From Candidatus Heimdallarchaeum aukensis (GTDB taxonomy: Archaea > Asgardarchaeota > Heimdallarchaeia > Heimdallarchaeales > Heimdallarchaeaceae), in contig CP084166.1 of NCBI GenBank assembly GCA_021513695.1, positions 2,112,001 through 2,176,000 of the forward strand: a DNA stretch of 64,000 nt, in the 5' to 3' direction. The position numbers were made by a program, and so were the translations under genes. How positions within the stretch are numbered: position 1 is the stretch's first letter; every line of letters begins with the position of its first letter. The notes beneath the pieces are model-generated. The model was not told the origin of the DNA. It did not search any database and worked only from the letters and a program-made list of their open reading frames with translations. This document shows positions 4,390 to 38,977 of this stretch, in pieces.

Positions 4390-4427
4390 ATCTTTACTAT
4401 TGAAAGAATGATAAATGGTGCATTTAA

Positions 4428-5981
4428 ATGGTCAATACAGTTGAGGAATTAATAAAAACTGGCTATAAAGGGTATTCAGTTAGGCATATATTAATGAATA
4501 ACGAATTTAGAAAACGTGTAATCAATGATCCAAGTGTTAGAGGAAATGAAGACGCAAAGAATTTAGTCATGGATAAGCTTGCTGTCGGAGGAAAAGTACT
4601 TATCACAGGTCCTACAGGAGAAGCTAAAACGCTATTCAGTCGTATTCTCCTAGATCACATAGTTCGAGAAATTAATGATCATAAGTATCATATTGATTCC
4701 TGTCCTTTCCTTGAGGACGCAGGATACATTATTGATGTTATCGAGCAATTTGAAGTTGATCCGTTCAATGGAATAAAGGTTTTACAATCTCTTTGTCCTT
4801 TCTGTAGAGCTAAAATTGAAAATGCTTTGAGTGATGGGAAAGGAGATGTAAAATTAGATAATACAGCAAGTGTTCTTAAAACTAAACCCGTTGAATTCAA
4901 AGAAAAATTATTAAAAATCGGTGTAGAAAAAACTGTTGTACGAAAAGCACAACTTGACCCAAGAACAGACCCTGAAAGTCTCTATATGCTATTAGCTGGT
5001 GTAGAAAATCTAGAAGAACTGTTTGGAAAGGAAACTTCAACAACTTACACTCCAACATCACATAAAGTAGGTGTGCTTAGTAAAGGTTTTATTGTAGTTA
5101 ACGAAATTCAACGTCTTCCCCTATCCTTGCTCGAAGCACTGATGGGCTTTCTTGAAGACACAACTTCAATAAAGTATAATCTTCAAGGAGAACCTGTTTA
5201 TATTGATGGAGCAATGATATTTACTTCTAATGCTCCCTTAACAGTATTTGGAGAAGAATCACAACCTATTATCAATCGTATTCCAGAAGTTCTTTGGCCT
5301 GCAAGATCCGTGGAAAGTAGAAGTCAAATTGTTCGAGATATGTTTAGAGAACAAATTACGCTTTCTAGACAAAAAATAACCGCAAATCCAAGCATTGTTC
5401 AGTTGTATGATCGAGAAAAAAGCTCGAAGGATTATGTGAGTAAATTAGCCATAGATTTCCTCGCATTCATTGGAAATAACTCTTTACCAGAAGCTCTTAA
5501 AAAAGGACGAATTCGTTCTGAAAGTAGAGTTCAAAGATTAGACTTTTACGCAGGATTAGATGAAATCCATGATCCTCAAAGAAATCCACATATCGATTTA
5601 CGTACAACATCAAACATTGTGGGTAGCGTGTTGCTCAATAGAGAACGAGAACTTCAAGACGAAGAATATAATGTTGTTACAATAGAACATGTAAGAAAAG
5701 TATTAAACGATTACGATATTCCTTTAGCAATGATAAATGATGCACTACAGGAAATAAAAATAAAACTTAGATCCAACCTTAAAAGCGCGGGAATGGCTGT
5801 AAAAGCAGAAGATATAAGTGAAGATATATCAAAGATGAAGGCATTAAGTGACGAAGAATTATCCGAATTGATTATCAATTACGAAAAACTAGAACGATAC
5901 TATGAATCAGATGTTTTACCTAAAATCGTTGAACAACTCAAACCGAGTTATGAAGCTCTATTGAAGGTAGACTATATCTAA
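4428..5981 (+). CDS. AAA+ ATPase of the MoxR/Mg-chelatase ChlI-like clade
   Basis: 'RGNEDAKNLVMDKLAVGGKVLITGPTGEAKT' parallels ChlI 'VGQEEMKLALLL..GGVLIMGDRGTGKST' and supplies Walker A. 'GFIVVNEIQRLPLSLLEALMGFLED...IDGAMIFTSNAP' parallels the ChlI Walker B and sensor region. It starts 38 nt downstream of the Arf-like gene. Confidence 0.75.
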   Translation: MVNTVEELIKTGYKGYSVRHILMNNEFRKRVINDPSVRGNEDAKNLVMDKLAVGGKVLITGPTGEAKTLFSRILLDHIVREINDHKYHIDSCPFLEDAGYIIDVIEQFEVDPFNGIKVLQSLCPFCRAKIENALSDGKGDVKLDNTASVLKTKPVEFKEKLLKIGVEKTVVRKAQLDPRTDPESLYMLLAGVENLEELFGKETSTTYTPTSHKVGVLSKGFIVVNEIQRLPLSLLEALMGFLEDTTSIKYNLQGEPVYIDGAMIFTSNAPLTVFGEESQPIINRIPEVLWPARSVESRSQIVRDMFREQITLSRQKITANPSIVQLYDREKSSKDYVSKLAIDFLAFIGNNSLPEALKKGRIRSESRVQRLDFYAGLDEIHDPQRNPHIDLRTTSNIVGSVLLNRERELQDEEYNVVTIEHVRKVLNDYDIPLAMINDALQEIKIKLRSNLKSAGMAVKAEDISEDISKMKALSDEELSELIINYEKLERYYESDVLPKIVEQLKPSYEALLKVDYI

Positions 5982-6006
5982 AATTTGGTGAAGGTGGCAA
6001 AAACTA

Positions 6007-7392
6007 ATGCCCCATCGAATTTTTTTACTTACGGAATCAGAGTTTAGAGACCCTCTACAAAATTACGGCGATGCTGAGTTTATATTAGACTTTGAAGGTG
6101 CTGCTGAATTATTAAAACTTTGGCGTAATCCTCACCTAGGTAGGAGCTCTAGAGAAGGAGCTGTACTATCTTTAGGTGCAAAAAACGCTGTTGCAATCCA
6201 AAACATACTCCAAAAAATAATGACAACATATCTTACTGAAGCAGAAGAAGAGAGACTAATTAATGAACTAAAAATATTACAGTTTATTGGAGATAGAGTC
6301 CTCCCTGATGTTCTAGAACGTGTAAACAAGAACGAACTTCAAACAGTGGACGATATTATTCGATACATCCAGAATTTACTACGAGAACTGAAGTATGAGG
6401 GAACAGTTGATCTTAACCTTCTTGCAGATAAGTTGAACTCTCTTAAAGACATTGTTGATTTAGAAATTACAGATGCATACGGAAGAAAGAAGAGGATAAA
6501 ACGAGAAGAAGTGATGGATGTTTTAGGTAACATCCTTGGGCATTACCTTTTAAAGCAAATCAATGTTCTTCCTATTGATGAAGTTCAAAAACGCCCAAGA
6601 GGAACAATTAGACTTCGAGAAACCTATAAAAGTGCAGTGCTTAGTTCGCAATCAATTCCTCCAACGCGCGTAAAACAAGAAGATATTATCCGTGTGAAAA
6701 AAGATAGAAGAAGTTTAGTATATTTCTTAGTGGATTTAAGCCAATCAATGCAAAAAGAAGTGTTTGAGGGGGGAATGACAAGGTTAGATGGAGCTCTATT
6801 AACTGCTCTAAGTCTATATTACTACTTTAAAACCGCCAATAGGAGAAAAAGAAAGAGATACGATATGTTTCAACTTGCAGTAGTCCCTATTGTTCGAAAC
6901 CCCTTTGTAGTAGATGATGATACAAAAATGGAAGATCTTTTATTGAATGCTAAAGCCAAAGGAAAGACACATACTGTAAGCAGTGTTTTGAAAGCTATTG
7001 AGCATGCTAAAGCACAGTATAAGCATAAAAATATTGATGTTCAACTTACAATTGTAACGGATGGTATGCCAAACATACCTGTTTATCCATTTAATTACAA
7101 AATTAGTTCTTCATTAAAGAATTATTTCAATTCAATCGATACTAAAACCAGTCCAGAGACAATAGAGTGCTTGTTACAACTTAATGCCATATTTAAACAC
7201 TTAAAATCAGATCCTAATAGAAATTGGAACATAAGTTACTTTTTGATGGGTACAGAAGCTTTGAGAAAAAAGGAAATTTATAGTCATACGTATCAAATGT
7301 TGAAAGGTATAACTAAACCAATTTTAGTAGATCCTGCACAAATTAACAAACTTGGAGAGCAAGTACTACGGGAGAGTATTCACCATGCATAA
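6007..7392 (+). CDS. von Willebrand factor A (vWA) domain protein with intact MIDAS, partner of the upstream AAA+ ATPase
   Basis: The C-terminal half carries 'VYFLVDLSQSMQ' (DxSxS) and 'LTIVTDGMPN' (MIDAS Asp). An N-terminal region of about 220 aa has no recognised domain. Confidence 0.75.
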   Translation: MPHRIFLLTESEFRDPLQNYGDAEFILDFEGAAELLKLWRNPHLGRSSREGAVLSLGAKNAVAIQNILQKIMTTYLTEAEEERLINELKILQFIGDRVLPDVLERVNKNELQTVDDIIRYIQNLLRELKYEGTVDLNLLADKLNSLKDIVDLEITDAYGRKKRIKREEVMDVLGNILGHYLLKQINVLPIDEVQKRPRGTIRLRETYKSAVLSSQSIPPTRVKQEDIIRVKKDRRSLVYFLVDLSQSMQKEVFEGGMTRLDGALLTALSLYYYFKTANRRKRKRYDMFQLAVVPIVRNPFVVDDDTKMEDLLLNAKAKGKTHTVSSVLKAIEHAKAQYKHKNIDVQLTIVTDGMPNIPVYPFNYKISSSLKNYFNSIDTKTSPETIECLLQLNAIFKHLKSDPNRNWNISYFLMGTEALRKKEIYSHTYQMLKGITKPILVDPAQINKLGEQVLRESIHHA

Positions 7393-8977
7393 AGAAGAAT
7401 TAGCTGACATCATTGATGTGTATCTGCAAGCAAGAAAAGATTTCTTAGAACTGGTAGGTGAAACACCAGAGAATTATAGAATACTTATTTTTCTTAACCC
7501 TGATTTACATATTTCTGTTAACAGGGTGATTGAAAGTGCAGGAACTCCCCAGGCAATCTTAACTGCTGAAGAAGTTGTTCATCTACAATCAGCAAGAAAT
7601 AATGAATATATGCCGTTAGGGAAAGAAACAGTTTTTAACAGCATACCCACACTAATTTATCTTTCAACACCTCGTTATGAATTGACAGAGGAAGAGAAAA
7701 TAACTTTGAGAATAATGATAGTTCATGCTTTTGCTCATGCCTATATGAATGAAAAAACAGAATCCAATAATCCTAAACAGTTATCTCGCATATACCAACT
7801 AGATGTAATTTTAAAAGAATTATTCCAAAATAATGCTTACAAAATTAACGAAGAAACAAACAAACAGTTGATGTGGACTTGGCAGTACTATCAAGATCTA
7901 ATAAGCGTTATACGATTGTTTGTTGAGGCTGGAGTACAAGACTTTTATTCTCCTCCTGAAGAAGCAAGAAAATACACTTTATTCAACAACTTTTCAATTG
8001 AGGTTATTAAGGTTCTAAAGGAAAGAGCAAAAGAATCAAGAAAGAAACATCTCCACGATTTAATCGATGAAGGATTTGCATTCTATATTCAAAGGATGCA
8101 TTTAGATTATTTGAATAAAAATAAACAAGTCCCCAAGAATCTTCCTAAAGAACTTAAACCCTTTATGGCTCCCCCTGTTGGAAAAATAAGTTTGTTCTTA
8201 GTTGATAAACTAAAATTGGCTATAAGCGAACAAATAGAAAAGGAGAAAAAGGAGAGCCTTTCGTCAGAAGAAATTGAAAAAAGATTGTTTGATAAACTGT
8301 TTAGCTTTAGGACTGATTTAGAATTTCTTGAGACTTTTGATTGGCAAGAGCTAAAAAATTGGGTGTCTGAACAAAAAAGAGCTCATTCAGAAAAAGTGTT
8401 AAAGGATTGGCATGTAACAACTACCAATTTCACTGATATTTGGTCTGTTTATGCTTATGGTTGGACACAACTGGAAAATTACATCAAAAAGATATATAGA
8501 AAGAAATACAGTACTTTTGGACAATTGATGGATGATAACCCAAAAATAGAATTCAAGGGATATTTAACTGTTGATGAAAAGAAAGTTTATGTCTTTGAAA
8601 TCAATAACGAAGGTGTGGGACTAGATCAATTGGTTATTTTGCATAATCACATGGCTTTATATCGTGAAGATTTTGCTACCATACTTCCTGCTTTTGCAGA
8701 CATTATCGCTTTCAAAAAAATCAGAGGTATGCACGTTGCAACTTTGTTTGCTGTCCATAAAATTAGTAGAAAACAACCAATTAGTCCCTATAACTTGCCT
8801 ATTGTGACTAGAGCTGTTCAAGTAACGAAAAGAAAGGATGCATACAAAACTGAACTCGATGAAGAAAAAGAGAAAATGGAAGTTGAACGAGTAGACTATA
8901 CACATTTGAAGAAACTCTCTCAACCTCAAAGAAACGCTATAAGTTATCTAATAAAGGAAGGAATGTACTATGTTTAA
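7352..8977 (+). CDS. hypothetical protein (541 aa), co-operonic with the MoxR/vWA pair; the true start is possibly the ATG at 7385
   Basis: It is a long ORF with a possible degenerate zincin-like 'IVHAFAHAYMNE' (HxxxH without Glu). Its start overlaps the vWA stop (ATGCATAA coupling at 7385) and its stop overlaps the next start (ATGTTTAA). Confidence 0.5.
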   Translation: MESKYYGRVFTMHKEELADIIDVYLQARKDFLELVGETPENYRILIFLNPDLHISVNRVIESAGTPQAILTAEEVVHLQSARNNEYMPLGKETVFNSIPTLIYLSTPRYELTEEEKITLRIMIVHAFAHAYMNEKTESNNPKQLSRIYQLDVILKELFQNNAYKINEETNKQLMWTWQYYQDLISVIRLFVEAGVQDFYSPPEEARKYTLFNNFSIEVIKVLKERAKESRKKHLHDLIDEGFAFYIQRMHLDYLNKNKQVPKNLPKELKPFMAPPVGKISLFLVDKLKLAISEQIEKEKKESLSSEEIEKRLFDKLFSFRTDLEFLETFDWQELKNWVSEQKRAHSEKVLKDWHVTTTNFTDIWSVYAYGWTQLENYIKKIYRKKYSTFGQLMDDNPKIEFKGYLTVDEKKVYVFEINNEGVGLDQLVILHNHMALYREDFATILPAFADIIAFKKIRGMHVATLFAVHKISRKQPISPYNLPIVTRAVQVTKRKDAYKTELDEEKEKMEVERVDYTHLKKLSQPQRNAISYLIKEGMYYV

Positions 8978-9719
8978 AAGATGGTTAATGATAAAAAAAT
9001 TAGGAAGCGAAATAGACTTAGATAGACTAAAAGCTGTTCTTTTTTTAAGAAAGAAAGGGAAAGACAAGGACATCAATAATCTTTTGCCACTTTTAAGTGA
9101 CAAGGATTGGAATGTAAGAAACGCTACAGCATTGACTATAATTAAACTCGTTAATCTTTATCCAGAAAAAAAAGAGGAAATCCTACTAAAGCTTCATCAA
9201 TTACTTGAAAAGAGATCCTTAGCTACAAAACTGTCTGTATTGGAAATCCTGGGACAGTTAAGAGACTATTCCTCGAAAGATTTTATCAAAAAAATTATTG
9301 AAGAAAGTGATTATGATTTACAATATGCAGCTATTAGAGCAATAGGTTATCTTGATGACGTTGACATTTTATCTTCTTTGAAAGAAGTGGTTTACTCAAA
9401 AGATTACATCACACGAAGAGCAGTGATCTTTTCAATATTGCGAATAGTTAATTCAGTTGAAGAAGAAAAGAAAGTTGAACTCCTAACTCCTCACATCCAC
9501 TTATTAATTCAAGTTTATTTAGAGTTAAATGAATTGGGCGAGGTAATCTATAAAATCCTAGATTACGGAGATCCAGAGCAATTTCCAGGAATGAAACCGT
9601 ATTCAGAATTTGAGATAATCAGATTAACTTCATTAATTGAACAATACGATTATCGAGTTCCAGTCTATAAGAACTTTGCAAAAATAATTTATCCTCTTTA
9701 TTTTCCTTTAAATAGTTGA
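8970..9719 (+). CDS. HEAT-repeat (PBS-lyase-like) protein
   Basis: It contains repeated 'LLPLLSDKDWNVRNATALTIIKL'-type alpha-helical repeats and is the last gene of the tightly coupled operon. Confidence 0.6.
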   Translation: MFKRWLMIKKLGSEIDLDRLKAVLFLRKKGKDKDINNLLPLLSDKDWNVRNATALTIIKLVNLYPEKKEEILLKLHQLLEKRSLATKLSVLEILGQLRDYSSKDFIKKIIEESDYDLQYAAIRAIGYLDDVDILSSLKEVVYSKDYITRRAVIFSILRIVNSVEEEKKVELLTPHIHLLIQVYLELNELGEVIYKILDYGDPEQFPGMKPYSEFEIIRLTSLIEQYDYRVPVYKNFAKIIYPLYFPLNS

Positions 9720-10815: not shown

Positions 10816-12798
10816 ATGCCATTAAACATCGAAACTCCTTTTACTCCTAAAGGAGACCAACCTAAAGCTATTGAACAATTAGTGGAAGGAATAAAAAAAG
10901 GGTATAAACTACAGACACTTTTAGGGACTACGGGAAGCGGGAAAACTGACAGCATAGCATGGGTCATTGACCGTCTTAAACTTCCCACTTTGGTTATTGC
11001 CCCTAACAAAACTCTCGCTGCTCAACTTTATGGTGAGTTTAAAGTTCTTTTTCCTTCAGCTCGTGTTGAGTATTTTGTTAGTTTTTATGATTATTATCAA
11101 CCTGAAGCTTATCTTCCTTCCAAGGATCTTCTTATTGAGAAAGATTTTGATATTAACGAAGAAATTGAACGCTTACGCCATTCTGCCACCGAAGCATTAG
11201 CTACTCGCGATGACGTGATAGTTGTTGCTTCTGTTAGTTGTATTTATGGCATTGGAGACCCTGCAATCTATCGAGCAAAGCGTTTAGAGCTTGTTGTTGG
11301 ACAAGAATTTGATAGAGAAGAGTTAATGACACAACTCATCAATAACCGATATGAACGTAACGATATTAATCTAACTAGAGGAAAGTTTAGGGTTCGGGGA
11401 GACACTATCGATATTTTTCCTCAGTATGGAGATTATATTTATCGTGTAGAATTTTTCGGAGATGAAATAGAAAGATTAACTTCCAGAGATCCTGTTACAT
11501 ATAACCAAGTTCGTGAATTCCAAGAACTCACCTTTTATCCTGGAACACATTATCTTACTCGTGATAATTTATTTGACCAAGCTTTAGCTGATATAGAACA
11601 AGAGCTGGAAGAACGATTGGCTGAATTAAAAAGTCAAGGTAAACTTGTTGAATATCAAAGGCTCAAACAACGGACGAAATATGATCTAGAATTACTAAGA
11701 GAGACAAAATATTGTCCTGGAATTGAAAATTATTCTCGTCATTTAGACAGAAGAAAAAAAGGAGAACCTCCTTATACTCTGATGGATCATATGCCTGATG
11801 ATTTTCTTTTGGTAATTGATGAGAGTCATCTTACTATTCCACAAATAAAAGGAATGTTTGGTGGAGACTATTCTCGAAAAAAGAATCTAGTAGATTATGG
11901 TTTTAGATTACCTAGCGCTTTTGATAATAGACCTTTAAAATTTGATGAATTTAAGAAATATATGAAAAAAGTCATCTTTACTAGTGCAACTCCTGGGCCT
12001 TATGAAATTGAGCACTCTGAACAGATAGTGGAGCAGATTATTAGACCTACAGGGCTTGTAGATCCTAAAATTGAAGTAAGAAAAACAGAAGGGCAAATTG
12101 ATGACCTATTAGGAGAAATAAAAAAACAAGTTAGGAAGGGTGGTAGAGTACTTGTTACCACATTAACAAAAGACAACGCTGAGATGCTTTCGGATTATTT
12201 AATTGATAACGGAATCAACTCTGTCTATTTACATCATGAAGTAGATACATTAGACAGAATAAACATATTAAGGGACTTAAGAATCGGAAAATATGATGTC
12301 ATAGTTGGGATTAATCTTCTTCGTGAAGGACTAGACCTTCCAGAAGTAGGGTTAGTCGCTATTCTTGATGCAGATAAAGAAGGTTTTCTAAGATCTAAAA
12401 GCTCTCTAATTCAATTAATGGGTAGAGCAAGTAGAAACGTTAGCGGGAGTGTTATTTTGTATGCTGATAAAATTACAGATTCTATGAAAGAAGCTATATT
12501 TGAGAATAACAGACGAAGAAGAATACAGATAGAATATAATCGAAAACATGGAATTAACCCTCAAACAATAAAGAAAGAAGTGAAATCCATAGTAGAAACT
12601 TTAATGCAAGTGTCTCAAAAGGAGGAAGAGGAAGAGATAACTATTGATAGAAGTGAACTCACAGTAGAAAAGATAATGGCTATTATCAATGAACTAAAAG
12701 AGAAAATGGCAGAAGCTGCTGCCAACCTAGAATTTGAAAAAGCTGCTATTTACAGAGATAAAATACGTGAAATTGAGAAGCAGGTAGATACTAAATGA
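10816..12798 (+). CDS. uvrB: excinuclease ABC subunit B
   Basis: 'GDQPKAIEQL', Walker A 'GTTGSGKT', helicase motifs, and the C-terminal UvrB/UvrC interaction helix 'FEKAAIYRDKIREIE' are all present. Confidence 0.95.
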   Translation: MPLNIETPFTPKGDQPKAIEQLVEGIKKGYKLQTLLGTTGSGKTDSIAWVIDRLKLPTLVIAPNKTLAAQLYGEFKVLFPSARVEYFVSFYDYYQPEAYLPSKDLLIEKDFDINEEIERLRHSATEALATRDDVIVVASVSCIYGIGDPAIYRAKRLELVVGQEFDREELMTQLINNRYERNDINLTRGKFRVRGDTIDIFPQYGDYIYRVEFFGDEIERLTSRDPVTYNQVREFQELTFYPGTHYLTRDNLFDQALADIEQELEERLAELKSQGKLVEYQRLKQRTKYDLELLRETKYCPGIENYSRHLDRRKKGEPPYTLMDHMPDDFLLVIDESHLTIPQIKGMFGGDYSRKKNLVDYGFRLPSAFDNRPLKFDEFKKYMKKVIFTSATPGPYEIEHSEQIVEQIIRPTGLVDPKIEVRKTEGQIDDLLGEIKKQVRKGGRVLVTTLTKDNAEMLSDYLIDNGINSVYLHHEVDTLDRINILRDLRIGKYDVIVGINLLREGLDLPEVGLVAILDADKEGFLRSKSSLIQLMGRASRNVSGSVILYADKITDSMKEAIFENNRRRRIQIEYNRKHGINPQTIKKEVKSIVETLMQVSQKEEEEEITIDRSELTVEKIMAIINELKEKMAEAAANLEFEKAAIYRDKIREIEKQVDTK

Positions 12799-14606
12799 AT
12801 ATTGTTTCTGATATAGAAAGATTACCTACTGGTCCTGGAGTATATTTGATCAAAGATTCAGAGGGAAATGTAATCTATATCGGAAAAGCTAAAAATCTAA
12901 AAGATAGAGTTAAACAACATTTTTCTGAAACATCTTCAGAAATAAAGAAAGAACGAGCTATTCAAGAACAAGCTTACAATATAGATTTCTTAGAAACAAG
13001 AACAGAAACAGAAGCAATATTGCTTGAAAGAAGATTGATTAAAGATATTAAACCTAAACTAAATGTTAGAAGTAAGGATGATAAATCCTCTCTTCTTATC
13101 CGTATTAGTAAAGAAGAACCATTTCCTCAATTATATGTAGTAAGAGAAACAGATCCTCACGTAGAAGGGAGCATCTATTTTGGTCCTTATGGGTACGACA
13201 GGAAACTAAGGGATACAGTAAAACTAGTTTTGAAACTATTCCCTATAGCTAATTGTGGTGAAAAATTATACAAATATAGAGAAAAGAAAAGTGTAAACCG
13301 ATGTATGCGTAAAAGAATAGGTCAATGTATTGCTTGTGATAAGAGCGTGAGTCCAGAGAAATATAATCAGATAGTTGAAAATGTGATAAACTTTTTAGAA
13401 GGAAATGTGGGCGCACTTCTAGATTCCTTGGAAAAAGAAATGTGGGAAGAAGGAAAAAAAGAAAATTTTGAACGTGCTGCAGTTCTACGCGATCTAATAA
13501 ATTCTGTTAGAAAAATAGTCTCCATTCAGAAAGAAAACAATTTTGACGTAGATGATATAGTTGTAATAGCAACCAGAGAAGAGCAAGAAGTATTATCCTT
13601 CTGTAAAATTGAAATTAAAAATAAAAGAATCAATCGTATAATTTCAGATTCTATCGTTCTTGAAACAAAAAGTGAAAATTTTACTCTCTCTAATTTATTG
13701 TCTTTAATAGGTACTAATCCTTCTGAAATAGACCATTTAGTTGTAGATGAGGTTTTTATTAAAAAAATCCAAAATGATCTAAAAGTTAAACTAATTACCC
13801 CTGATAGTAAAATATTGAAAGATGTATTCACTATAGCAAAAAGGAACGCTTTTAACGAGCTTGCACGTTATTTTAGCTCAAAAACACGTGAGAAAAACAT
13901 CAAAAAAGTATTAGAAGATATGAAAGTAATTCTAAAACTCCCTAAGCTCCCTATAATTATACACGGATATGACATTTCTACTCTTGGAGGAAAACACTCA
14001 ACAGGCTCATGTGTTGTGTTCAAGAACGGGAAACCTGAAAAAAGATATTATAAACAATTTAAAATAAGACAAGAATATTCTGACCCAAATGACTACGCTA
14101 TGATGCGTGAAGTGTTAAGAAGACATTATTCAAATTACAATGATTTTGATGAACCCCAACCTGATCTAATTTTACTTGATGGAGGAAAAGGTCAACTTAA
14201 TGTTGCAGTTAAAGTATTAAAAGAATTAAAGTTGGACTTGCCTTTAGTTTCAATAGCAAAAAAAGAGGAAGAACTTTTTGTTCCATGGGATACAAATCCT
14301 GTAGTCCTTCCAAGAGAATCTGAAGTGTTGAAACTTCTTCAACAAATAAGAGATGAAGCTCACCGTTTTGCCATTCAATACTCAAAACAACTGAGAACAA
14401 GAAAATTAGGTCGTTCTACTTTTGAAAAAATAAAAGGAATAGGACCAAAAAAAGCTGTATTGTTGAACACCTATTTTGATAATTTACAGGATATAGGAAG
14501 TGCCTCTGTTGCTGAAATAATGAAATTAATTAAAGTAGATGAGCAAACAGCGGTTCAAGTTTTAAATTTAGCAAAAAACTTGACAAATTCAGTTTCTTTT
14601 GAATAA
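12795..14606 (+). CDS. uvrC: excinuclease ABC subunit C
   Basis: It has an N-terminal GIY-YIG 'GVYLIKDSEGNVIYIGKAKNLKDRV' and a C-terminal RNase H-like endonuclease plus HhH region. Its start overlaps the uvrB stop (ATGA). Confidence 0.9.
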   Translation: MNIVSDIERLPTGPGVYLIKDSEGNVIYIGKAKNLKDRVKQHFSETSSEIKKERAIQEQAYNIDFLETRTETEAILLERRLIKDIKPKLNVRSKDDKSSLLIRISKEEPFPQLYVVRETDPHVEGSIYFGPYGYDRKLRDTVKLVLKLFPIANCGEKLYKYREKKSVNRCMRKRIGQCIACDKSVSPEKYNQIVENVINFLEGNVGALLDSLEKEMWEEGKKENFERAAVLRDLINSVRKIVSIQKENNFDVDDIVVIATREEQEVLSFCKIEIKNKRINRIISDSIVLETKSENFTLSNLLSLIGTNPSEIDHLVVDEVFIKKIQNDLKVKLITPDSKILKDVFTIAKRNAFNELARYFSSKTREKNIKKVLEDMKVILKLPKLPIIIHGYDISTLGGKHSTGSCVVFKNGKPEKRYYKQFKIRQEYSDPNDYAMMREVLRRHYSNYNDFDEPQPDLILLDGGKGQLNVAVKVLKELKLDLPLVSIAKKEEELFVPWDTNPVVLPRESEVLKLLQQIRDEAHRFAIQYSKQLRTRKLGRSTFEKIKGIGPKKAVLLNTYFDNLQDIGSASVAEIMKLIKVDEQTAVQVLNLAKNLTNSVSFE

Positions 14607-22526: not shown

Positions 22527-22649
22527 TTAAATCCCATGTAATACTTGAAAAACACCCACACATGTATTCACATGTCCTTCTCGGTTTACGTGGGTAATAT
22601 AATTTTATTTATTGTGAGTTATCTTTTAGAATTTAGATAAAATAAAAAA

Positions 22650-22694
22650 AGAGAAGAGAAGAAAAGAGAAGAGAAGAAAAGAGAAGAGAAGAGA
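22650..22694. repeat. tandem repeat, three copies of a 15-nt unit AGAGAAGAGAAGAAA
   Basis: Read directly: 22650-22664, 22665-22679 and 22680-22694 (the last copy has one substitution). Confidence 0.85.
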
Positions 22695-22814: not shown

Positions 22815-22908
22815 GAAATTCGTAGCTAATAGTAAAAAAGAGAAAATAGTATATAAACTCAGCAATAAATAAGGGCAATCTTTGGAGAAAAAAATAAAAT
22901 TGGAAGAA

Positions 22909-23634
22909 CTATTTCCAGAATTGCCACCATTTTTTCTTTTTAGAAGAATCTTCTTTCTTATCGTCATTTCTTAGTTCTAGTGCAGCATCTCTCCAAGCCA
23001 TTTTTGTGATCATATCTCTGAATCCTTCTGGTTCGTCACCTTCTTCAATAACATATACAATGGGTATTCTCTTACGTTCAACTTCTAGTTGTCTAGCTAT
23101 TTTTCCTGCTTCATATTTTTCTTTAACTTGACAATCTTTACCTATCCATATGTAAATCTCATCATAAAAGTCTAGAACAAAGGCATCATCGGACTCAAAT
23201 AATTTATACTCAATCGGAATTTCTTTAGTAATTACCTCTCCTTTTTCATTCTGTTCAATATGTAATAGGCGAAAATCCTTCTTTACCTTTATATCTATGT
23301 GCTTAAGAAAACCAGGTGTATCTCCTCTTTTTACTTCAAATTCTATTATATCTAGAAATTCTGGAGGTTCATCACCTTGCATTATTGTTTTGATTTCTAG
23401 TTTTTTGTTTTTTTCTTCAATTACTTTGGCTGCCCAAGCTCCTACAGCTTTGTCGTCAGCATAGCTCCTTTTACCTATCCAAACCCAGAGAATGTTATCG
23501 GTTTCAACAACATAAACATCTCCATCTAAAAAAGTATAAGGAGACTTTAACTCTTTTAATTCTTTTTTAACTACATGATAAACTTGCATATAATTACTAA
23601 TGTATAGTGTAATAAAAGTCTTTTTAAGAGACAA
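22909..23634 (-). CDS. two-domain gelsolin-like actin-binding protein (2DGel-type)
   Basis: There are two gelsolin-homology repeats: 'FLDGDVYVVETDNILWVWIGKRSYADDKAVGAWAAKVIE' and 'FESDDAFVLDFYDEIYIWIGKDCQVKEKYEAGKIARQLE'. Each has the (D-x-Y/F-V/I-LD ... I/L-W-x-G) signature, and there is a basic C-terminal tail. Confidence 0.6.
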   Translation of the reverse strand: MSLKKTFITLYISNYMQVYHVVKKELKELKSPYTFLDGDVYVVETDNILWVWIGKRSYADDKAVGAWAAKVIEEKNKKLEIKTIMQGDEPPEFLDIIEFEVKRGDTPGFLKHIDIKVKKDFRLLHIEQNEKGEVITKEIPIEYKLFESDDAFVLDFYDEIYIWIGKDCQVKEKYEAGKIARQLEVERKRIPIVYVIEEGDEPEGFRDMITKMAWRDAALELRNDDKKEDSSKKKKWWQFWK

Positions 23635-25835: not shown

Positions 25836-25945
25836 AATTGTACAAAAATGTATATCGGTATAGTGAAAGTTGAAATATTGAACTGTGTCAGCAATTACGT
25901 AATTTTTGTACTCAGAACGAGAAGTAAATTACGTAATTTTTGTAC
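25836..25945. promoter_or_regulatory. repeat array upstream of the WD40 gene: two 19-bp direct repeats plus one inverted partial copy
   Basis: 'AATTACGTAATTTTTGTAC' occurs at 25893-25911 and again at 25927-25945. 'TTGTACAAAAAT' at 25836-25848 is the reverse complement of the repeat core. The core TTACGTAA is palindromic. The array lies 60-170 nt upstream of the 26007 start. Confidence 0.3.
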
Positions 25946-26006: not shown

Positions 26007-27383
26007 TTGATTGTTTTAATAATGAGTTCAATAATAGAAAAGAGAATATACCAAATTACAACTTTAAAGCATAAAGATGATGTCAATCGTGTTCTTGTTG
26101 ATGAACAATACATCTATAGTGCTTCTTCTGATAAAACTGTAAAAGTTTGGGATAAATTTACATTTGATGAGGTTGCAATATTATCTCACAAAAAACAAGT
26201 AAATGACATCGCAATAGATGATAACTATGTCTATAGTGCGACCAATGATGCTCGAGTTTCTATTTGGGAAAAAAATAGTTGGGAAAATGTGACCTCCCTC
26301 CCGCATGATGGATTTGTAGAGAGAGTGGTTGTAGATGACAACTTTGTCTATACCTCTTCTGATGATTTTTCTGTTAGAATTTGGGATAAAAAAAATTGGA
26401 AGGTAGTATTAGGGTTAAGGGTATCCGGAGAAGTGAACACTCTTTTTGTAGACAAAGATTTTCTTTATACTGGAAAAGGAACAAAAGTAAAAATCTGGGC
26501 GAAAGATAACTTTGATGTTGTCACAACGATAAAATTACCTATGTTTAGTGCTGTGCGCACGATATATGTTGATGAGGATTTTATTTACATTGGAGGAAGT
26601 GAAAAAAATGTTCGTGTATTTGATAAAAATTCAAAAAAACTTGTAGCTAAACTTCCTCATTCCGCTATTTCAATCGTTTATTCAATATATGGTGATGACC
26701 AATATATTCTTACAGGGTTAAGTGACAATAAAGTTGTAGTGTGGAAAAAAAGCGATTTCTCAAAAGTTACTTTTCTAAGTATTCCAGGACAAGTGAAGTC
26801 GGTGTTCAGTGATGGAATAAGATTTTATTCTGGTAGTTCTGATAAAAAAGTTAGAGTTTTTGAACCAGCAATTTATGAAGAAAAAAGAAAGGAGTATGAA
26901 GCAAAGAGAAAAGAACAAGAATTGAAAAAGAAAAAGGAACTGGAAGAGCAAAAAAAGAAAGAAGAGGAGAAAAGAAAAAAAGAGGAGGAGAAGAAAAAAG
27001 AAAAACTTAGAAAAGAACAAATAAAAAAAGAGAAAGAGGAAGCCAAGGAAAAAGAGAAACGACAGAAAAAAGAAGAAGAAAGAAAGAAAAAAGAAGAAGA
27101 AAAGGAGAAAAAGCGAGAAGAAAGAATTACAACAATAAGAAATATCTTGAAGAAAAGTGATTCAATTGAAATTAATCTACTGATGGAAATTCTAGATTTT
27201 TCAACAAAAGCTGCTCTGCTAAAATTTTTATATAACTTACCAGAAGATTTCCCAATAATAATTAAAGATGATAAAGTGTTTTTCTCCACCCTAAATAAAA
27301 AAGAAAAAGAAGTCCATAAAGCAATAGATGACTTATTGAAAAAATATGAAGAATGGGAGCAGACTGATGTTTTTAAAATATAG
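26007..27383 (+). CDS. WD40 seven-bladed beta-propeller protein with a long Glu/Lys/Arg-rich single-alpha-helix (ER/K-like) segment and a C-terminal domain
   Basis: There are seven ~40-aa repeats ending 'VKVWDK', 'VSIWEK', 'VRIWDK', 'VKIWAK', 'VRVFDK', 'VVVWKK' and 'VRVFEP'. An E/K/R stretch of about 85 aa follows at about aa 290-375, and then a ~90-aa tail. Confidence 0.65.
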   Translation: MIVLIMSSIIEKRIYQITTLKHKDDVNRVLVDEQYIYSASSDKTVKVWDKFTFDEVAILSHKKQVNDIAIDDNYVYSATNDARVSIWEKNSWENVTSLPHDGFVERVVVDDNFVYTSSDDFSVRIWDKKNWKVVLGLRVSGEVNTLFVDKDFLYTGKGTKVKIWAKDNFDVVTTIKLPMFSAVRTIYVDEDFIYIGGSEKNVRVFDKNSKKLVAKLPHSAISIVYSIYGDDQYILTGLSDNKVVVWKKSDFSKVTFLSIPGQVKSVFSDGIRFYSGSSDKKVRVFEPAIYEEKRKEYEAKRKEQELKKKKELEEQKKKEEEKRKKEEEKKKEKLRKEQIKKEKEEAKEKEKRQKKEEERKKKEEEKEKKREERITTIRNILKKSDSIEINLLMEILDFSTKAALLKFLYNLPEDFPIIIKDDKVFFSTLNKKEKEVHKAIDDLLKKYEEWEQTDVFKI

Positions 27384-31233: not shown

Positions 31234-31336
31234 TGGTGGGGACGGCACGACTTGAACGCGCGACCAACAGGTATCTACGTTTTTTCAAATTATTAAACTC
31301 TGGAGCCTGCCACTCTACCTACTGAGCTACGTCCCC
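31234..31336 (-). tRNA. tRNA-Trp (anticodon CCA) with a ~27-nt intron in the anticodon arm; 3' CCA is encoded
   Basis: The reverse complement folds as acceptor GGGGACG/CGTCCCC, D-arm GCUC-AGUAGGUA-GAGU, anticodon stem GCAGG/CCUGU with loop CUCCAGA, intron GUUUAAUAAUUUGAAAAAACGUAGAUA, T-arm GCGCG-UUCAAGU-CGUGC, and discriminator A followed by CCA. It is a GC-rich island in AT-rich DNA. Confidence 0.8.
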
Positions 31337-34393: not shown

Positions 34394-36232
34394 ATGGGTA
34401 AACATGTCATCGAGCTAGATGTTGATACTATTAACAAAATCGCAGCTGGAGAAGTCATTGAGCGTCCTGCTTCAGTTGTTAAAGAACTCGTTGAAAATGC
34501 AATCGATGCTAAAGCTAGTTCTATTGAAATTAATATTGTTGACGGAGGAAAGAAAATTATTGAGGTTATTGACAATGGTGAGGGGATGAGTCATGATGAT
34601 GCTCTTACAGCAATAAAACGCCATACTACTAGTAAATTACGTACAGCTGAAGATCTCTTTAATATTCACTCTATGGGTTTTCGAGGAGAAGCCTTAGCAA
34701 GTATAGTTAGTGTTTCTATAACAGAAATCATTACTAGAACAGCTGATTCGGAGTTAGGTACAAGGTTAGAAATACATGGTGGAAAAGTTATTTCTGATCA
34801 AACTATTTCTGCACCTGTAGGAACAAAAGTTATTGTAAAGAATCTTTTTTACAACGTTCCTGTTCGAAGAAAGTTCCTTAAGAACACTTCCACTGAACTT
34901 CGGCATGTAACTGAAACAATAACAAAGTTAGCTTTATCTAAACCCGATATTTACTTTAAATATACTCACAACAATAAAGTTGTTCTTTCTGCTCCTCAAG
35001 GTGATCTACTAACAAATATTGCCACTATTTTTGGTAAAAATATGGCAAAAGGAGCTCTCAAAATAGAAAAAAGTGAGAACGGTTATTATTTACATGGTTA
35101 CATCTTAAAACCAGAGTTTGCTCGTAAATCTAAAGATTACCTCTATTTATTTGTAAATAACAGGCCTATCAAAGATAAATTGATTACTGATGCTATTTTA
35201 GCAGGTTATGGTACATCTGTTCCTCATGGAAGTTATCCTGTCGTTTTTCTTTACTTTAATTTGCCTGCAAACGAAGTTGATGTTAATATTCATCCTACTA
35301 AAAGAGAGGTAAAATTTGCTGAAGAAGTTAAGGTTTATTCGATGTTTGAATCAGCTATCAAGGAAGCTTTTGAAGCTAGTGGGTTAGAAATATTTAAACG
35401 AGTTGAACAACCAAAAGCACAACCTACTTTACTATCTTCTGTAGATTCTAACAAAATAGAGAAAAAGACGATGAGTACTTCTTATATAAAATCAAAGACT
35501 GTTATAAAAAAAGCTCCTGTTCCTTCAAAATCCTCTATTGGAAGAAAAAGAGAGAAACAACTTACCAGCTTTATTGATGTAAAAACTAGTTCGGAATCTA
35601 TTTCTAGCTCATCAACTACTCAAGTCCGAAAAGATGCTTTTCAAATTTTGGGAATAATAAAAGATACATATATCATAGCTGAAATGGATGAAGGTTTAGT
35701 TCTCTGTGATCAACATGCTGCAGCTGAAAAAATTAATTATTTAAAATATCTCAATCAGCTGAAGCAAAATAAAGTTGCGAAGCAAGGTTTGTTAGACCCA
35801 ATTATTATAACTCTCAAACCTTCTGAATTCAACACAATGCAGGAGATAATAGATAAGTTAGCTGTTCTGGGTTTTGAAATAAAACCTTTTGGTCAATTTG
35901 ATATCGCAGTTAGTGCTGTTCCAACGATTTTAGGAAAAAACATCTCTTCAAAAGTTGTTATTGATGTTATAGATATATTGAAAGAAAATTCACAGGAAAT
36001 TAAAGATCAAATAGAAATCGAAAAGTTACAAGTGATTAAGGATTTGATTGCTTTAACTGCTTGTAGAAGATCGATTAAAGCTGGGGATAGTTTGTCTTTT
36101 ATTGAAGCTAAAAGATTAATTACAGAACTGTTAGAACAAGATGACCCATGGACTTGTCCTCATGGAAGACCAACAATGATTCTTCTTACTGAAGATTATA
36201 TCAAAGAGTTATTTGGAAGAGATTATAGGTAA
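34394..36232 (+). CDS. mutL: DNA mismatch repair protein MutL
   Basis: The GHKL ATPase N-terminus 'INKIAAGEVIERPASVVKELVENAIDA' and 'GFRGEAL' are present, and the size (612 aa) fits. Confidence 0.9.
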   Translation: MGKHVIELDVDTINKIAAGEVIERPASVVKELVENAIDAKASSIEINIVDGGKKIIEVIDNGEGMSHDDALTAIKRHTTSKLRTAEDLFNIHSMGFRGEALASIVSVSITEIITRTADSELGTRLEIHGGKVISDQTISAPVGTKVIVKNLFYNVPVRRKFLKNTSTELRHVTETITKLALSKPDIYFKYTHNNKVVLSAPQGDLLTNIATIFGKNMAKGALKIEKSENGYYLHGYILKPEFARKSKDYLYLFVNNRPIKDKLITDAILAGYGTSVPHGSYPVVFLYFNLPANEVDVNIHPTKREVKFAEEVKVYSMFESAIKEAFEASGLEIFKRVEQPKAQPTLLSSVDSNKIEKKTMSTSYIKSKTVIKKAPVPSKSSIGRKREKQLTSFIDVKTSSESISSSSTTQVRKDAFQILGIIKDTYIIAEMDEGLVLCDQHAAAEKINYLKYLNQLKQNKVAKQGLLDPIIITLKPSEFNTMQEIIDKLAVLGFEIKPFGQFDIAVSAVPTILGKNISSKVVIDVIDILKENSQEIKDQIEIEKLQVIKDLIALTACRRSIKAGDSLSFIEAKRLITELLEQDDPWTCPHGRPTMILLTEDYIKELFGRDYR

Positions 36233-36247
36233 ATTTTTTAGAAATTC

Positions 36248-38977
36248 TTATTCTTCTTTTTTTCTTAGAATATTCCTACACTTTCTAGTTAATTGGTCTA
36301 GTAGATTTATTGCTTCAATAGGTGTAATCTTGTTCACATTAATATTTGCAATGTCTTGGAGAAGTTTGTATTCTCTTTCTTGTAAAATACCTGATTTCTT
36401 AGTGAAAGTTCTTTTGTTTTCTATGGCAGATTGAAAAGCTGTTTCTCCTAACAGTGTAACTTGTACGGGAGTGAGTTTACCTTTCTTTACTTTTTCCTCT
36501 TGCTTTTCTTCTCTTTGTTCTTTGTTGTTCATTTGTGCATGAAGAATGTGTAAAACTTCATTTGCTCTTTCTATGACCCTTTGCGGAATACCAGCTAAAG
36601 AAGCTACATGTACCCCATAAGATTCATCTATTCCTCCTTCTTTTACCTTGTATAAGAAATGAACACTACCGTTCACGTTTTTCACTGCAACGTGGTAATT
36701 CTTTACTCTTGGAAGAATATTTTCTAGTTCTATTAGTTCATGATAATGTGTTGCCAATAATGTTCTTGGTCCTATCCTTCCAATATTGTTGTGCAGATAC
36801 TCAGCTATTGCCCAAGCTAAAGCTACTCCATCAAAAGTTGAAGTTCCTCTTCCTATTTCATCAAGTATTACTAGACTTCGTTCTGTTGCATTATTTAGGA
36901 TATTTGCGCTTTCTATCATCTCCACCATAAATGTAGACCGATTTTCGATTAATACGTCATGTGCTCCAATACGTGTGAAAATTCTATCTGTCAAACCTAT
37001 ACGGGCCTTTGATGCAGGGACAAAACTACCTATATGAGCTAAAAGAACTATCAAAGCTGTTTGTCTGAGGAAAGTTGACTTTCCTGACATATTAGGTCCT
37101 GTGATAATTAGAAGTCTATTCTTTTTCTCTTCTATGATACAGTCATTAGGAATAAAGGTGGAATCTTTTAACAACTGCTCAACTACGGGGTGTCTCCCCT
37201 CCTTGATGTAGTAACTGTTTTCTTCTATTATTTCTGGCTTCGTATAATTGAAATTAACTGCATTCTGAGCAAAAGTGGATAAAACATCCAGTACAGCACA
37301 ATAATAAGCAGTCTCTTTTATTTGATTGGTAAACTTTGAAATTTCATTTAGTATCTCATTGTATAATCTCTCTTCTATCGCTATAATTTTCTCTTCTGCA
37401 GACAGTATTTTTATTTCATACTCTTTTAATTCTGGAGTAATGTATCGTTCTGCATTAGTCAAAGTTTGCTTTCGTTCATATTCTGCTGGCACTTGATCAG
37501 AGTATGCTTTGCTTACCTCAATAAAGTAGCCAAATACTTTATTGAACTTAACTTTTAATGTTTTAATATCTGTACGTTGTTTTTCTCTTGCTTCAAGAGA
37601 TTGTAAAAACTTTTTACTGTTTTTTCTAATATTTTTAAGTTCATCTAATTCCTTGTTATATCCCTCTTTTATTACTGTCCCGTCTCCTATTGATGCACTT
37701 GCATTTTCAGAGATTGTTCTTTCAATAATATTTACTACCTCTTTTAGAGGATTAAGTTTTTCTCTTATTTCAATAAAATATGAGGATTGATACTTGGACA
37801 AAAGTTTCTTTATTTCAGGTATAAGTTGTAACGTTTCTTTTAGAGCAAGAAGTTCTCGTGGTCTGGCTCTCCCTAACGCTACTCTACTTATGATTCTTTC
37901 AATATCACTCATATCTCCGAGTATTTCTCTAATATCTTCTCGTGTGATAATATCTTGAAATAATTCATCAACAGCATTCAATCTTTTCTCAATTATCGCT
38001 TTATCTAAACTCGGGTGGAGCAACCATCTGGTAAGAAGCCTTGATCCTGGTCCAGTTTTTGTGTTATCTAGTATGTATCTTAATGTCCCAAATTCTGTTC
38101 TATCTCTTACATTAGTGATTAGTTCTAGACTCATTATTGTTGTTGAGTCGAGAATCATAAACTCATCTGTTTTGATCTTAGAAATTTTTGTGATATTTGG
38201 AAAAGTTTCTCTAAATTGAGTCTCTCTAAGATAATTTATTATAGCTCCTGCAGCAGCAATATACACTCCATCTTCTTCTAATCCAAAACCATCCAGTGTA
38301 GCTAATTGAAAAAACTTGAGTAAATCTTGTCTTCCTTGTTCAACATCAAAATAATAACTTGGTTTAAATGTTAATACACACTGCTTTGTATTATACTGAA
38401 GGTTTAATGTTTCCCAAAGTTCTTTTTCGATTATTATCTCAGCTGGAGATAAGCGTGTAAATTCTACATCTAAACTTGCTTCATCTGAAAAATCTGTAAC
38501 ATAGAAGTCACCCGTAGACAAATCTAATGCAGCTAAACCATATTTGTCGTTTTCTTTTGATATTGCAACAAGAAAATTATTGCTTTTTTTAAGGGACTCT
38601 GGAGCAAGAACCGTCCCTTTTGAAACTAATCTTACTACTCCTCTTTTTACTATTGTTTTTGCTTTACTTGGATCTTCAAGTTGTTCTACAATAGCAACTT
38701 TATATCCTTGCTCTACCATCCTAGCAAGGTAAGAGTCAACTGCGTGATAGGGTACACCTGCAAGAGGCCATTCTGTTTCTGCAGTTTTTCTAGATGTTAA
38801 AGTAATATTAAGGGCTTTAGATGTAATGATAGCATCTTCTTTAAATGTTTCATAAAAATCTCCCAAGCGCCAGAAGATTATATGTTCCGGATATTGTTTT
38901 TTTACTTCTAACCACTGTTTTTGCATTGGGGTGAGTTTCTTTTTATGACTGTCATCAAATCTTTTCATTATACACAC
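36248..38977 (-). CDS. mutS: DNA mismatch repair protein MutS (MutS1-type)
   Basis: It has the Walker A 'GPNMSGKSTFLRQ', the mismatch-binding N-terminal domain and 'TLLATHYHEL'. It is 909 aa. Confidence 0.9.
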   Translation of the reverse strand: MCIMKRFDDSHKKKLTPMQKQWLEVKKQYPEHIIFWRLGDFYETFKEDAIITSKALNITLTSRKTAETEWPLAGVPYHAVDSYLARMVEQGYKVAIVEQLEDPSKAKTIVKRGVVRLVSKGTVLAPESLKKSNNFLVAISKENDKYGLAALDLSTGDFYVTDFSDEASLDVEFTRLSPAEIIIEKELWETLNLQYNTKQCVLTFKPSYYFDVEQGRQDLLKFFQLATLDGFGLEEDGVYIAAAGAIINYLRETQFRETFPNITKISKIKTDEFMILDSTTIMSLELITNVRDRTEFGTLRYILDNTKTGPGSRLLTRWLLHPSLDKAIIEKRLNAVDELFQDIITREDIREILGDMSDIERIISRVALGRARPRELLALKETLQLIPEIKKLLSKYQSSYFIEIREKLNPLKEVVNIIERTISENASASIGDGTVIKEGYNKELDELKNIRKNSKKFLQSLEAREKQRTDIKTLKVKFNKVFGYFIEVSKAYSDQVPAEYERKQTLTNAERYITPELKEYEIKILSAEEKIIAIEERLYNEILNEISKFTNQIKETAYYCAVLDVLSTFAQNAVNFNYTKPEIIEENSYYIKEGRHPVVEQLLKDSTFIPNDCIIEEKKNRLLIITGPNMSGKSTFLRQTALIVLLAHIGSFVPASKARIGLTDRIFTRIGAHDVLIENRSTFMVEMIESANILNNATERSLVILDEIGRGTSTFDGVALAWAIAEYLHNNIGRIGPRTLLATHYHELIELENILPRVKNYHVAVKNVNGSVHFLYKVKEGGIDESYGVHVASLAGIPQRVIERANEVLHILHAQMNNKEQREEKQEEKVKKGKLTPVQVTLLGETAFQSAIENKRTFTKKSGILQEREYKLLQDIANINVNKITPIEAINLLDQLTRKCRNILRKKEE

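Follow-up and report, generated by a model that had tools for sequence, protein, structure and literature searches.

A compact two-domain gelsolin of Heimdallarchaeaceae ends in a conserved KKWWQFWK peptide that recurs on unrelated proteins of prokaryotes and phages

The gelsolin gene and its transcription signals

A compact two-domain gelsolin is encoded on the minus strand of a 64,000-nucleotide stretch of DNA, referred to below as the window, in an open reading frame (ORF) found at exactly 22909-23634. As the first-pass annotation of this ORF had already said, the family is not new: Asgard gelsolins with two domains (2DGels) have been solved and assayed, and the gelsolin itself adds little, mainly confirming the Heimdallarchaeaceae origin of the window. 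Its novelty is the conserved KKWWQFWK terminus, which characterizes one of two classes of Heimdall gelsolins and whose last seven residues recur on unrelated proteins of bacteria, archaea and phages.

Translation of the gelsolin is placed at the ATG at 23589, giving 226 amino acids (aa), and not at the TTG at 23634, which would add 15 codons (241 aa), because the N-termini of homologues, the start of the alignment to proteins of the Protein Data Bank (PDB) and the position of a TATA-box-like element all agree on the ATG. In 41 aligned homologues, M[KNQI][VAIT][YF][HQR][VI] opens the protein at the ATG-encoded methionine, apart from a few sequences with clearly over-extended N-termini, and the same methionine is the first residue of the phmmer alignment to PDB sequences. 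The TATA-like element, TTTTATTA, lies between the two candidate starts. A distance of ~25 nucleotides (nt) between TATA box and start is the rule for leaderless archaeal mRNAs and their promoters, and the spacing of TTTTATTA would imply a leaderless or near-leaderless mRNA for the gelsolin gene. An oligo-T tract, TTTTATTTTTTT, follows the stop codon and is, to judge by its composition and place, likely an archaeal terminator. The gene looks monocistronic in this layout, with a divergent isochorismatase-family gene upstream and a small RHH gene 382 bp downstream, beyond the T-tract. The intergenic DNA downstream also holds a purine-rich 15-nt tandem repeat, roughly AGAGAAGAGAAGAAA in three to four copies, and Rfam detects no structured RNA near the gelsolin gene.

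In GenBank the same protein is ACTSPP_04850, annotated from the upstream TTG as a "hypothetical protein" of 241 aa, and its 15-residue N-terminal extension is mis-called. The uninformative name is explained by NCBIfam, in which no model matches this archaeal gelsolin and none covers the tail motif.

Domains, fold and predicted actin regulation

The first-pass annotation classed the protein as a two-domain, 2DGel-type gelsolin, and the sequence, the profile match and the predicted fold all agree with the Asgard 2DGels. The Pfam gelsolin profile it had proposed as a check (PF00626) matches at E=5e-22, with 78 bits against a cutoff of 21, over two stretches, and the conserved signatures it had pointed to are present as F20-L-D-G23-D24 and V36-W37-I38-G39 in the first domain (D1) and as S133-D134-D135-A-F-V-L139-D140 and I147-W148-I149-G150 in the second (D2). 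A phmmer search of the PDB ranks a Heimdallarchaeota 2DGel (7whf_G) at the top with E=4.5e-49; human and horse gelsolin reach ~1e-34, with alignments to the G1-G2 as well as the G4-G5 pair of domains, Thor 2DGel3 (7c2h/7c2g) ~1e-29 and Loki 2DGel (7whg) 8e-22. Exactly two gelsolin domains occupy the 226 aa; there is no domain X, no third domain and no further Pfam domain, and weak matches to MPK1_gelsolin_C and DUF7904 overlap D1 below the cutoff.

An AlphaFold2 (AF2) model, built from a 42-sequence alignment, consists of two units, each a beta-sheet with a long helix, at a mean predicted local distance difference test score (pLDDT) of 69. Confidence is low in the inter-domain linker (residues 92-102) and in the tail from residue 210 (pLDDT <50 for 210-226). 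The fold is of the gelsolin type, as the first-pass annotation had expected: all 50 Foldseek matches listed from the PDB belong to the gelsolin family with probability 1.00. The top five are 7whf (twice), 7c2h, 7c2g and 7whg (probability 1.0, E 4e-22 to 8e-15), and after these complexes of Asgard 2DGels with actin come villin, gelsolin, adseverin, CapG and fragmin. A relation to the gelsolin-like domain of Sec23 was considered and dropped, since the matches are to actin-binding gelsolins.

The type II calcium sites of gelsolin, which we take to be G65/D66/E97 in its first domain and G186/D187/E209 in its second, a numbering consistent with the printed alignment, have counterparts in both domains. 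G65/D66/E97 align to G23/D24/D46 in the HMMER alignment, and G186/D187/E209 align to D134/D135/E157; the putative type II ligands of D1 are G23, D24, D46 and T91. The type II columns are invariant or near-invariant in the family alignment, as are D90-T91 and W52, the last of which is carried by the long actin-binding helix of D1 (residues 46-60), and in D2 the same holds for S133, D135, D140, W148 and E157. W37-I-G39 aligns to W88-L-G90 of human gelsolin G1.

Further features are shared with Heim2DGel, the protein OLS25976.1 of Heimdallarchaeota LC_3, whose structure is PDB 7WHF (Akil et al. 2022, PMC9433394). The WH2-like motif between the domains reads LKHI, with Ile where the L-basic-basic-(V/T) pattern has Val or Thr; LKHV/LRRV has been described as a WH2-like motif that extends along the face of actin (Akil et al. 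2022, PMC9433394). D201, invariant in 42 of 42 sequences, aligns to Asp222 of 7whf_G, a calcium ligand within the ordered first ten residues of the 7whf tail (PMC9433394). Published work reports Ca-dependent severing, capping and sequestering for the Heim and Loki 2DGels and describes the Thor 2DGels as Ca-regulated actin regulators; Ca-dependent actin monomer binding and severing/capping have been shown only for the Thor, Loki and Heim LC_3 proteins. By homology, this protein likely binds actin monomers and severs or caps filaments when activated by Ca2+. Ca2+ at the conserved sites would switch on monomer sequestration and filament severing or capping, the LKHI linker would run up the actin face, and D2 together with its extended C-terminal helix would provide a second actin contact.

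Tail architecture and gelsolin classes

A "basic tail" was also part of the first-pass annotation. The tail is indeed rich in lysine, but it is not a generic basic tail; it ends instead in a sharply conserved octapeptide. Its ~25 residues extend the D2 helix, continue as a variable tether and close with a peptide that is nearly invariant (Table 1). Within the tether, positions 209, 210 and 212-214 reach conservation values of 0.6-0.86, against a mean of 0.75 for the core. From K219 to K226 the columns of the octapeptide score 0.97, 0.94, 0.99, 0.94, 0.77, 0.99, 0.97 and 0.96 in the tailed class, of which it is the best-conserved segment.

A search for homologues yielded 171 sequences at E<=0.001, and the comparisons given here use the 120 that were listed (119 others and this protein). 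The 119 others share 54-75% identity with it and, where named, are almost all labelled Heimdallarchaeota, Heimdallarchaeaceae or "Asgard group". Two classes can be distinguished. Members of the tailed class, 71 of the 120, are ~222-248 aa long and end in [KR][KR]WW.FW[KR], sometimes followed by one or two more basic residues. Members of the tail-less class, 204-208 aa long, stop soon after the D2 helix and group by themselves, as a clade of 41, when a neighbour-joining tree is drawn. To judge by shared locus-tag prefixes (ACTSSN, KAS63 and HGN29), tailed and tail-less copies co-occur in at least three metagenome-assembled genomes (MAGs). The copy studied here belongs to a distinct Heimdall gelsolin subfamily, with the KKWWQFWK end as its defining feature. 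One motif-bearing homologue (P0065, ending in RKRWWEFWK) is labelled Candidatus Thorarchaeota; either this MAG is misclassified or the tailed subfamily extends beyond Heimdallarchaeia.

A few divergent gelsolins replace the peptide with other basic-aromatic or Leu-type ends, namely KRKFFWFFTKK, KKKFFDFLKRKK and RTGFLSFLKKK, or with GSFLDSFKRKVFSVLKK. Similarity to the Heim2DGel tail or to any solved chain was ruled out by a search of the PDB with the last 36 residues, which returned nothing significant and no match to 7whf. Akil et al. (PMC9433394) state that Heimdall tails are not homologous to one another and that their role is unclear. In the window and in ~120 kb of Heimdall DNA, no ORF other than the gelsolins ends in even a looser aromatic-basic pattern.

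Table 1. Coordinates of the gelsolin gene, its parts and other features of the window
Feature	Coordinates	Strand	Basis or remark
Two-domain gelsolin coding sequence	22909..23589	-	226 aa plus TAG stop at 22909-22911; ORF call, ATG by homologues, promoter and PDB alignment
TATA-box-like element TTTTATTA	23617-23610	-	Between TTG and ATG, ~25 nt upstream of ATG; read from sequence
Gelsolin domain D1 (residues 1-90)	23320..23589	-	Pfam, alignment to human gelsolin G1, invariant columns, AF2 secondary structure
WH2-like inter-domain motif L95-K96-H97-I98	23296..23307	-	Aligns to FLKHV of Heim2DGel (7whf); L95 invariant
Gelsolin domain D2 (residues 105-190)	23020..23277	-	Best Pfam stretch 137-206 (241-aa numbering), alignment to gelsolin G2
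C-terminal helix extension of D2 (residues 191-207)	22969..23019	-	Invariant D201, conserved E205-L206-R207; AF2 helix 190-215
Variable charged linker NDDKKEDSSKK (residues 208-218)	22936..22968	-	Conservation mostly 0.18-0.4; AF2 pLDDT <50 from 210
Terminal octapeptide K219-K-W-W-Q-F-W-K226	22912..22935	-	Conservation in 71 motif-bearing homologues and occurrence on unrelated proteins
Oligo-T tract TTTTATTTTTTT, likely terminator	22888..22899	-	10 nt after gelsolin stop; read from sequence
Purine-rich 15-nt tandem repeat	22635-22694		Intergenic
Possible trafficking-type gene cluster	3790-9719	+	Arf-family small-GTPase-like gene (PF00025, E=1.7e-6)
UvrB/UvrC pair	10816-14606		Bacterial type
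WD40 beta-propeller protein	26007-27383	+	2.4 kb from gelsolin
tRNA	31237-31336	-	Rfam
MutL/MutS pair	34394-38977		Bacterial type
Ribophorin I homologue	41421-43520	+	
Yip1-domain protein	47096-47758	+	
Bactofilin-like protein	56283-57173	-	

KWWQFWK on unrelated proteins

The heptapeptide KWWQFWK was back-translated and scanned in species-representative prokaryotic genomes and in the viral contigs of IMG/VR, and it was found at at least 120 loci in each, both counts being lower bounds. All 121 matches listed from the prokaryotic scan are in frame; about four random DNA matches would be expected from base composition by our own estimate. A stop codon directly follows the motif in 72 of these 121, and in ~25 more it is separated from the stop by one to six residues. 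The hosts among the listed matches include Bacteroidota, Planctomycetota, Bacillota, Pseudomonadota, Chloroflexota, Verrucomicrobiota and Myxococcota, with one Nanoarchaeia MAG and one Heimdall MAG on the archaeal side, and there are cultured isolates besides MAGs. With the motif removed, the listed prokaryotic carriers fall into 76 clusters without detectable mutual similarity, and 100 of the carriers listed match 48 Pfam families. They range from MORN and TPR proteins to AMP-binding (FadD-type) acyl-CoA ligases, BY-kinase-type ATPases, zinc ribbons and helix-turn-helix (HTH) proteins.

Fourteen synonymous DNA versions of the motif and all three stop codons are in use among the listed matches, and selection therefore acts on the peptide and not on a DNA element. 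The same two observations, together with the presence of the motif in isolates as well as MAGs, rule out mobile DNA or an assembly artefact as its source. The listed viral matches form 57 clusters, and pooling them with the listed prokaryotic matches gives 104 unrelated clusters, in 73 of which the motif lies six residues or fewer from the C-terminus. Across the pooled clusters, again among the matches listed, the residue before KWWQFWK is Lys or Arg in 83%, and nothing is conserved further upstream.

Control scans of IMG/VR indicate how specific the order of residues is. A scrambled peptide, KWQWFWK, occurs at two loci that are identical copies of one 27-aa ORF, and the reversed peptide, KWFQWWK, at none, which rules out an effect of composition. 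Two sequence neighbours are populated: KWWEFWK occurs at 54 loci, 21 of them at the exact C-terminus, and KFWQFWK at 27.

In phages, the motif takes other positions as well. Portal proteins of the phrog_12/2662 type carry it at the extreme N-terminus (MSKKWWQFWK...) in at least two portal families, with examples at L153 2757-3977(-), L185 116-1330(-) and L129 5704-7350(+) and ~20 similar loci, and a phrog_213 portal protein has KWWQFWK ~30 residues into the protein. Many small phage proteins (44-185 aa, at loci such as L159, L161, L163, L149, L197 and L201) carry it internally, 15-40 residues from the N-terminus, in the context NP-x-[RK]-KWWQFWK-[KP]-P/K, and these may constitute a separate small fold family. 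By its placement in the sequences, the motif is used at either protein end. A literal-string search of ~8 million full texts found no description of it, and KKWWQFWK is apparently a widespread, unnamed terminal motif of prokaryotes and phages that has not been described before.

What the tail may do

The spread of the octapeptide over proteins of so many kinds suggests a portable, context-independent targeting peptide and not a piece of actin-binding machinery; since it occurs on such varied proteins, and in organisms that lack actin, neither actin binding nor an intramolecular latch is a likely role for it. We tentatively propose that in the gelsolin it is a peripheral anchor at the membrane interface. 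The basic-aromatic tail would fasten the gelsolin to the membrane on its cytoplasmic side, and the tail-less paralogue would stay soluble in the cytosol. Several observations are consistent with such an anchor. The segment WWQFW comes to -6.1 kcal/mol on the Wimley-White interfacial scale, and the net charge is +5. No transmembrane segment is found in 102 of the 121 listed carriers. Signal-peptide-like N-termini occur in 14 of 112 carriers (~12%), so the target of the motif should be reachable on both sides of the membrane. FadD-type acyl-CoA ligases and BY-kinase-like and MORN proteins are among the carriers. Gelsolins that have lost Trp residues have kept a basic-hydrophobic end. Together, these observations favour a membrane anchor.

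The terminal position, soluble carriers, flexible linker and combined basic and aromatic composition also fit peripheral membrane-targeting peptides. Such peptides conserve physicochemical character rather than exact sequence; the motif instead keeps an exact order, and only within the gelsolins, with their F/L-rich substitutes, is the conservation partly of the looser kind. Without this hallmark, the tail is not counted here among the members of the membrane-targeting-sequence class, although it may work like a terminal membrane-targeting sequence.

A number of points weigh against this reading. The interfacial energy predicted for the scrambled and the reversed peptide equals that of the motif, and yet both are essentially absent in nature. 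This points to something order-specific, be it a defined conformation on binding, recognition by a specific partner or spread from a common ancestor. In viruses the motif stands at the N-termini of portal proteins and inside small proteins, where a membrane role is not obvious. The tail of Heim2DGel, which is unrelated, has no F-actin binding and no clear role according to published work. On the side of the gelsolin, the AF2 model has no more than moderate confidence and aligns to the complexes with TM-scores of ~0.4, a value explained by the free or differing orientation of the two domains. The type I calcium position (gelsolin D109) is ambiguous, as HMMER pairs it with I57, next to E58-E59; if the gap moved by one residue, E58 would be paired with D109, and Heim2DGel has Asp in the E58 column. 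Finally, no actin or profilin gene was found in the 64-kb window, by Pfam on 50 ORFs of at least 100 aa and in the gene tables of matching contigs. The suggestion of the first-pass annotation that actin and profilin are encoded elsewhere in the genome would still be reasonable in the light of the literature.

On a rival reading, KKWWQFWK would be a short linear motif that docks to a specific, very widely conserved protein or nucleic-acid partner, and not to lipid, and that recruits the gelsolin there. We consider this possible, though somewhat less likely than the membrane anchor. At equal predicted lipid affinity, viral matches number at least 120 for the motif against two for the scrambled and none for the reversed form, the neighbours KWWEFWK (54) and KFWQFWK (27) are populated, and conservation within the gelsolin subfamily is at least 94% at seven of the eight residues of the octapeptide, all of which speaks for a specific partner. 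Some carriers, moreover, are DNA-binding (HTH_17, MerR, Zn-ribbon and a plasmid replication protein) or portal proteins. Carriers nevertheless come from bacteria, archaea and phages, with ~12% looking exported, so that no one cytosolic protein could be the partner of every carrier; divergent gelsolins trade Trp for Phe or Leu with the basic-hydrophobic character kept, which a specific pocket would rarely tolerate; and no candidate partner has been identified. A role of the tail within the actin machinery itself, as a side-binding or bundling element for F-actin akin to the villin headpiece or as a Ca2+-released autoinhibitory latch akin to gelsolin G6, is very improbable. C-terminal extensions in the eukaryotic gelsolin family are established to work in both ways, and the helix extension with D201 aligns with the ordered, Ca-binding and actin-contacting segment of the Heim2DGel tail. 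The octapeptide, however, sits on more than 100 unrelated proteins of organisms and phages that have neither actin nor gelsolin, AF2 leaves residues 210-226 undocked from the core at pLDDT <50, and the Heim2DGel tail does not bind F-actin and is dispensable for Ca-triggered filament loss in cells.

That the ORF stems from eukaryotic contamination or was recently acquired from a eukaryote, or that it is a pseudogene in decay, would be conceivable for a protein of an otherwise eukaryotic family that NCBI names only "hypothetical protein" and that no NCBIfam model matches. Against this, the frame is intact and bordered by promoter-like and terminator-like signals, the gene's guanine-cytosine (GC) content of 0.31 fits the window, and the neighbours are archaeal housekeeping genes (eIF1A, eIF2-beta, NMD3, RIO1 and FttA). 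The listed homologues are nearly all Heimdallarchaeota or Asgard where named, and the closest structures are archaeal 2DGels and not eukaryotic gelsolins. With next to no probability left to it, this origin is effectively refuted.

Taken as a whole, the locus is likely best explained as encoding a compact 226-aa two-domain gelsolin of Heimdallarchaeaceae with a portable targeting peptide as its tail, perhaps a membrane anchor. A broader proposal, which we put forward with more reserve than the anchor alone, is that [KR]KWW[QE]FWK could be an undescribed, order-specific terminal module of bacteria, archaea and phages that confers a common localization, most plausibly at the membrane interface, and by which a whole subfamily of Heimdallarchaeial gelsolins, as Ca2+-activated proteins that sever and cap actin, would be tethered to the membrane. 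How actin is coupled to membranes in Asgard archaea is a question for models of eukaryogenesis, and a tail on one of two gelsolin paralogues bears on it. If the proposal is true, the tethered gelsolin would be a direct link between actin and membrane in the archaeal lineage closest to eukaryotes, made by a prokaryote-wide device and not by phosphoinositide binding. Beyond gelsolins, one exact heptapeptide on the ends of ~100 unrelated families suggests an unnamed general targeting signal, which, if real, would help to annotate many hypothetical proteins.

Comparison with known systems

Heim2DGel is the best match of this protein in both sequence and fold, and the two share the pair of gelsolin domains, the type II calcium positions, the LKH(V/I) linker and a D2 helix with a Ca-ligand Asp (D222 there, D201 here). 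Their identity is 38% in the structural alignment. The Ca-ordered insertions in D1 and D2 of Heim2DGel, which provide extra calcium sites there, are gaps in the alignment and absent here, and the tail of ~25 aa with its KKWWQFWK end contrasts with one of 68 aa in Heim2DGel. A compact core without insertions is instead shared with the Heimdall tail-less class (TET81546.1 type), to which identity is 54-61%, and with Thor 2DGel and 2DGel3 (7C2G, 7C2H), all of which lack the linker and octapeptide and end shortly after the D2 helix. Sequence thus places the protein nearest to Heim2DGel, whereas its architecture is most like that of the compact Thor proteins and the tail-less Heimdall class.

The G1-G2 pair of eukaryotic gelsolin, CapG and villin have the same fold and the same Ca-ligand positions, but these proteins have three to six domains where this one has two. 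Eukaryotic gelsolins are tied to membranes through basic patches that bind phosphatidylinositol 4,5-bisphosphate (PIP2), and villin is tied to F-actin through its folded headpiece; neither tie runs through a terminal octapeptide.

Known terminal membrane-targeting sequences, such as the C-termini of MinD and FtsA, are amphipathic helices whose conservation is loose and whose sequence varies from family to family. The octapeptide resembles the MinD and FtsA ends and synthetic Trp/Arg hexapeptides (Ac-RRWWRF-NH2) in being short, in placing basic next to aromatic residues and in its favourable predicted interfacial energy, and, as with MinD and FtsA, it follows a flexible linker at the extreme terminus of proteins that are otherwise soluble. 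It differs from known targeting sequences in being one exact, order-specific heptapeptide on ~100 unrelated families, including exported proteins and the N-termini of phage portal proteins.

Lineage and genomic context

The first-pass annotation held that the gelsolin strongly constrains the lineage, and an identical protein (ACTSPP_04850) is indeed encoded in the Candidatus Heimdallarchaeaceae MAG GCA_054383835.1. The window aligns to the MAG contig in five blocks at 93-99.8% identity, with 99-99.8% over nearly all of the aligned length, and is 100% identical to a Logan contig. GC content is uniform across the window at ~0.31-0.37. Besides the housekeeping genes named above, the neighbours include a KH protein, PHP, a MiaB-like radical SAM enzyme and hydantoinases. 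A conserved operon was ruled out, as two tailed orthologues and one tail-less paralogue have no common neighbours, apart, in one of the cases, from hydantoinase genes at a distance of a few kb.

The MAG contig carries an insertion of ~1.15 kb with a DDE transposase between the radical-SAM and WD40 genes (L001 1570-2720) that is absent from the window at ~25936-25945. The flanking alignments overlap there by 10 bp, which is consistent with a target-site duplication, and the insertion is a strain-level insertion-sequence polymorphism.

Several other genes of the window are eukaryote-like or cytoskeletal, namely those for a WD40 beta-propeller, a Ribophorin I homologue, a Yip1-domain protein and a bactofilin-like protein (Table 1). 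An Arf-family small-GTPase-like gene is followed by three large ORFs, of 517, 461 and 541 aa, that have no match in Pfam, and by a gene for a HEAT-repeat protein, and together these may form an Asgard trafficking-type gene cluster. Rfam places a tRNA of 100 nt against a 71-position model, and ARAGORN found no tRNA in the window; the gene presumably contains an intron. The contig also carries bacterial-type gene pairs for MutL/MutS and UvrB/UvrC.

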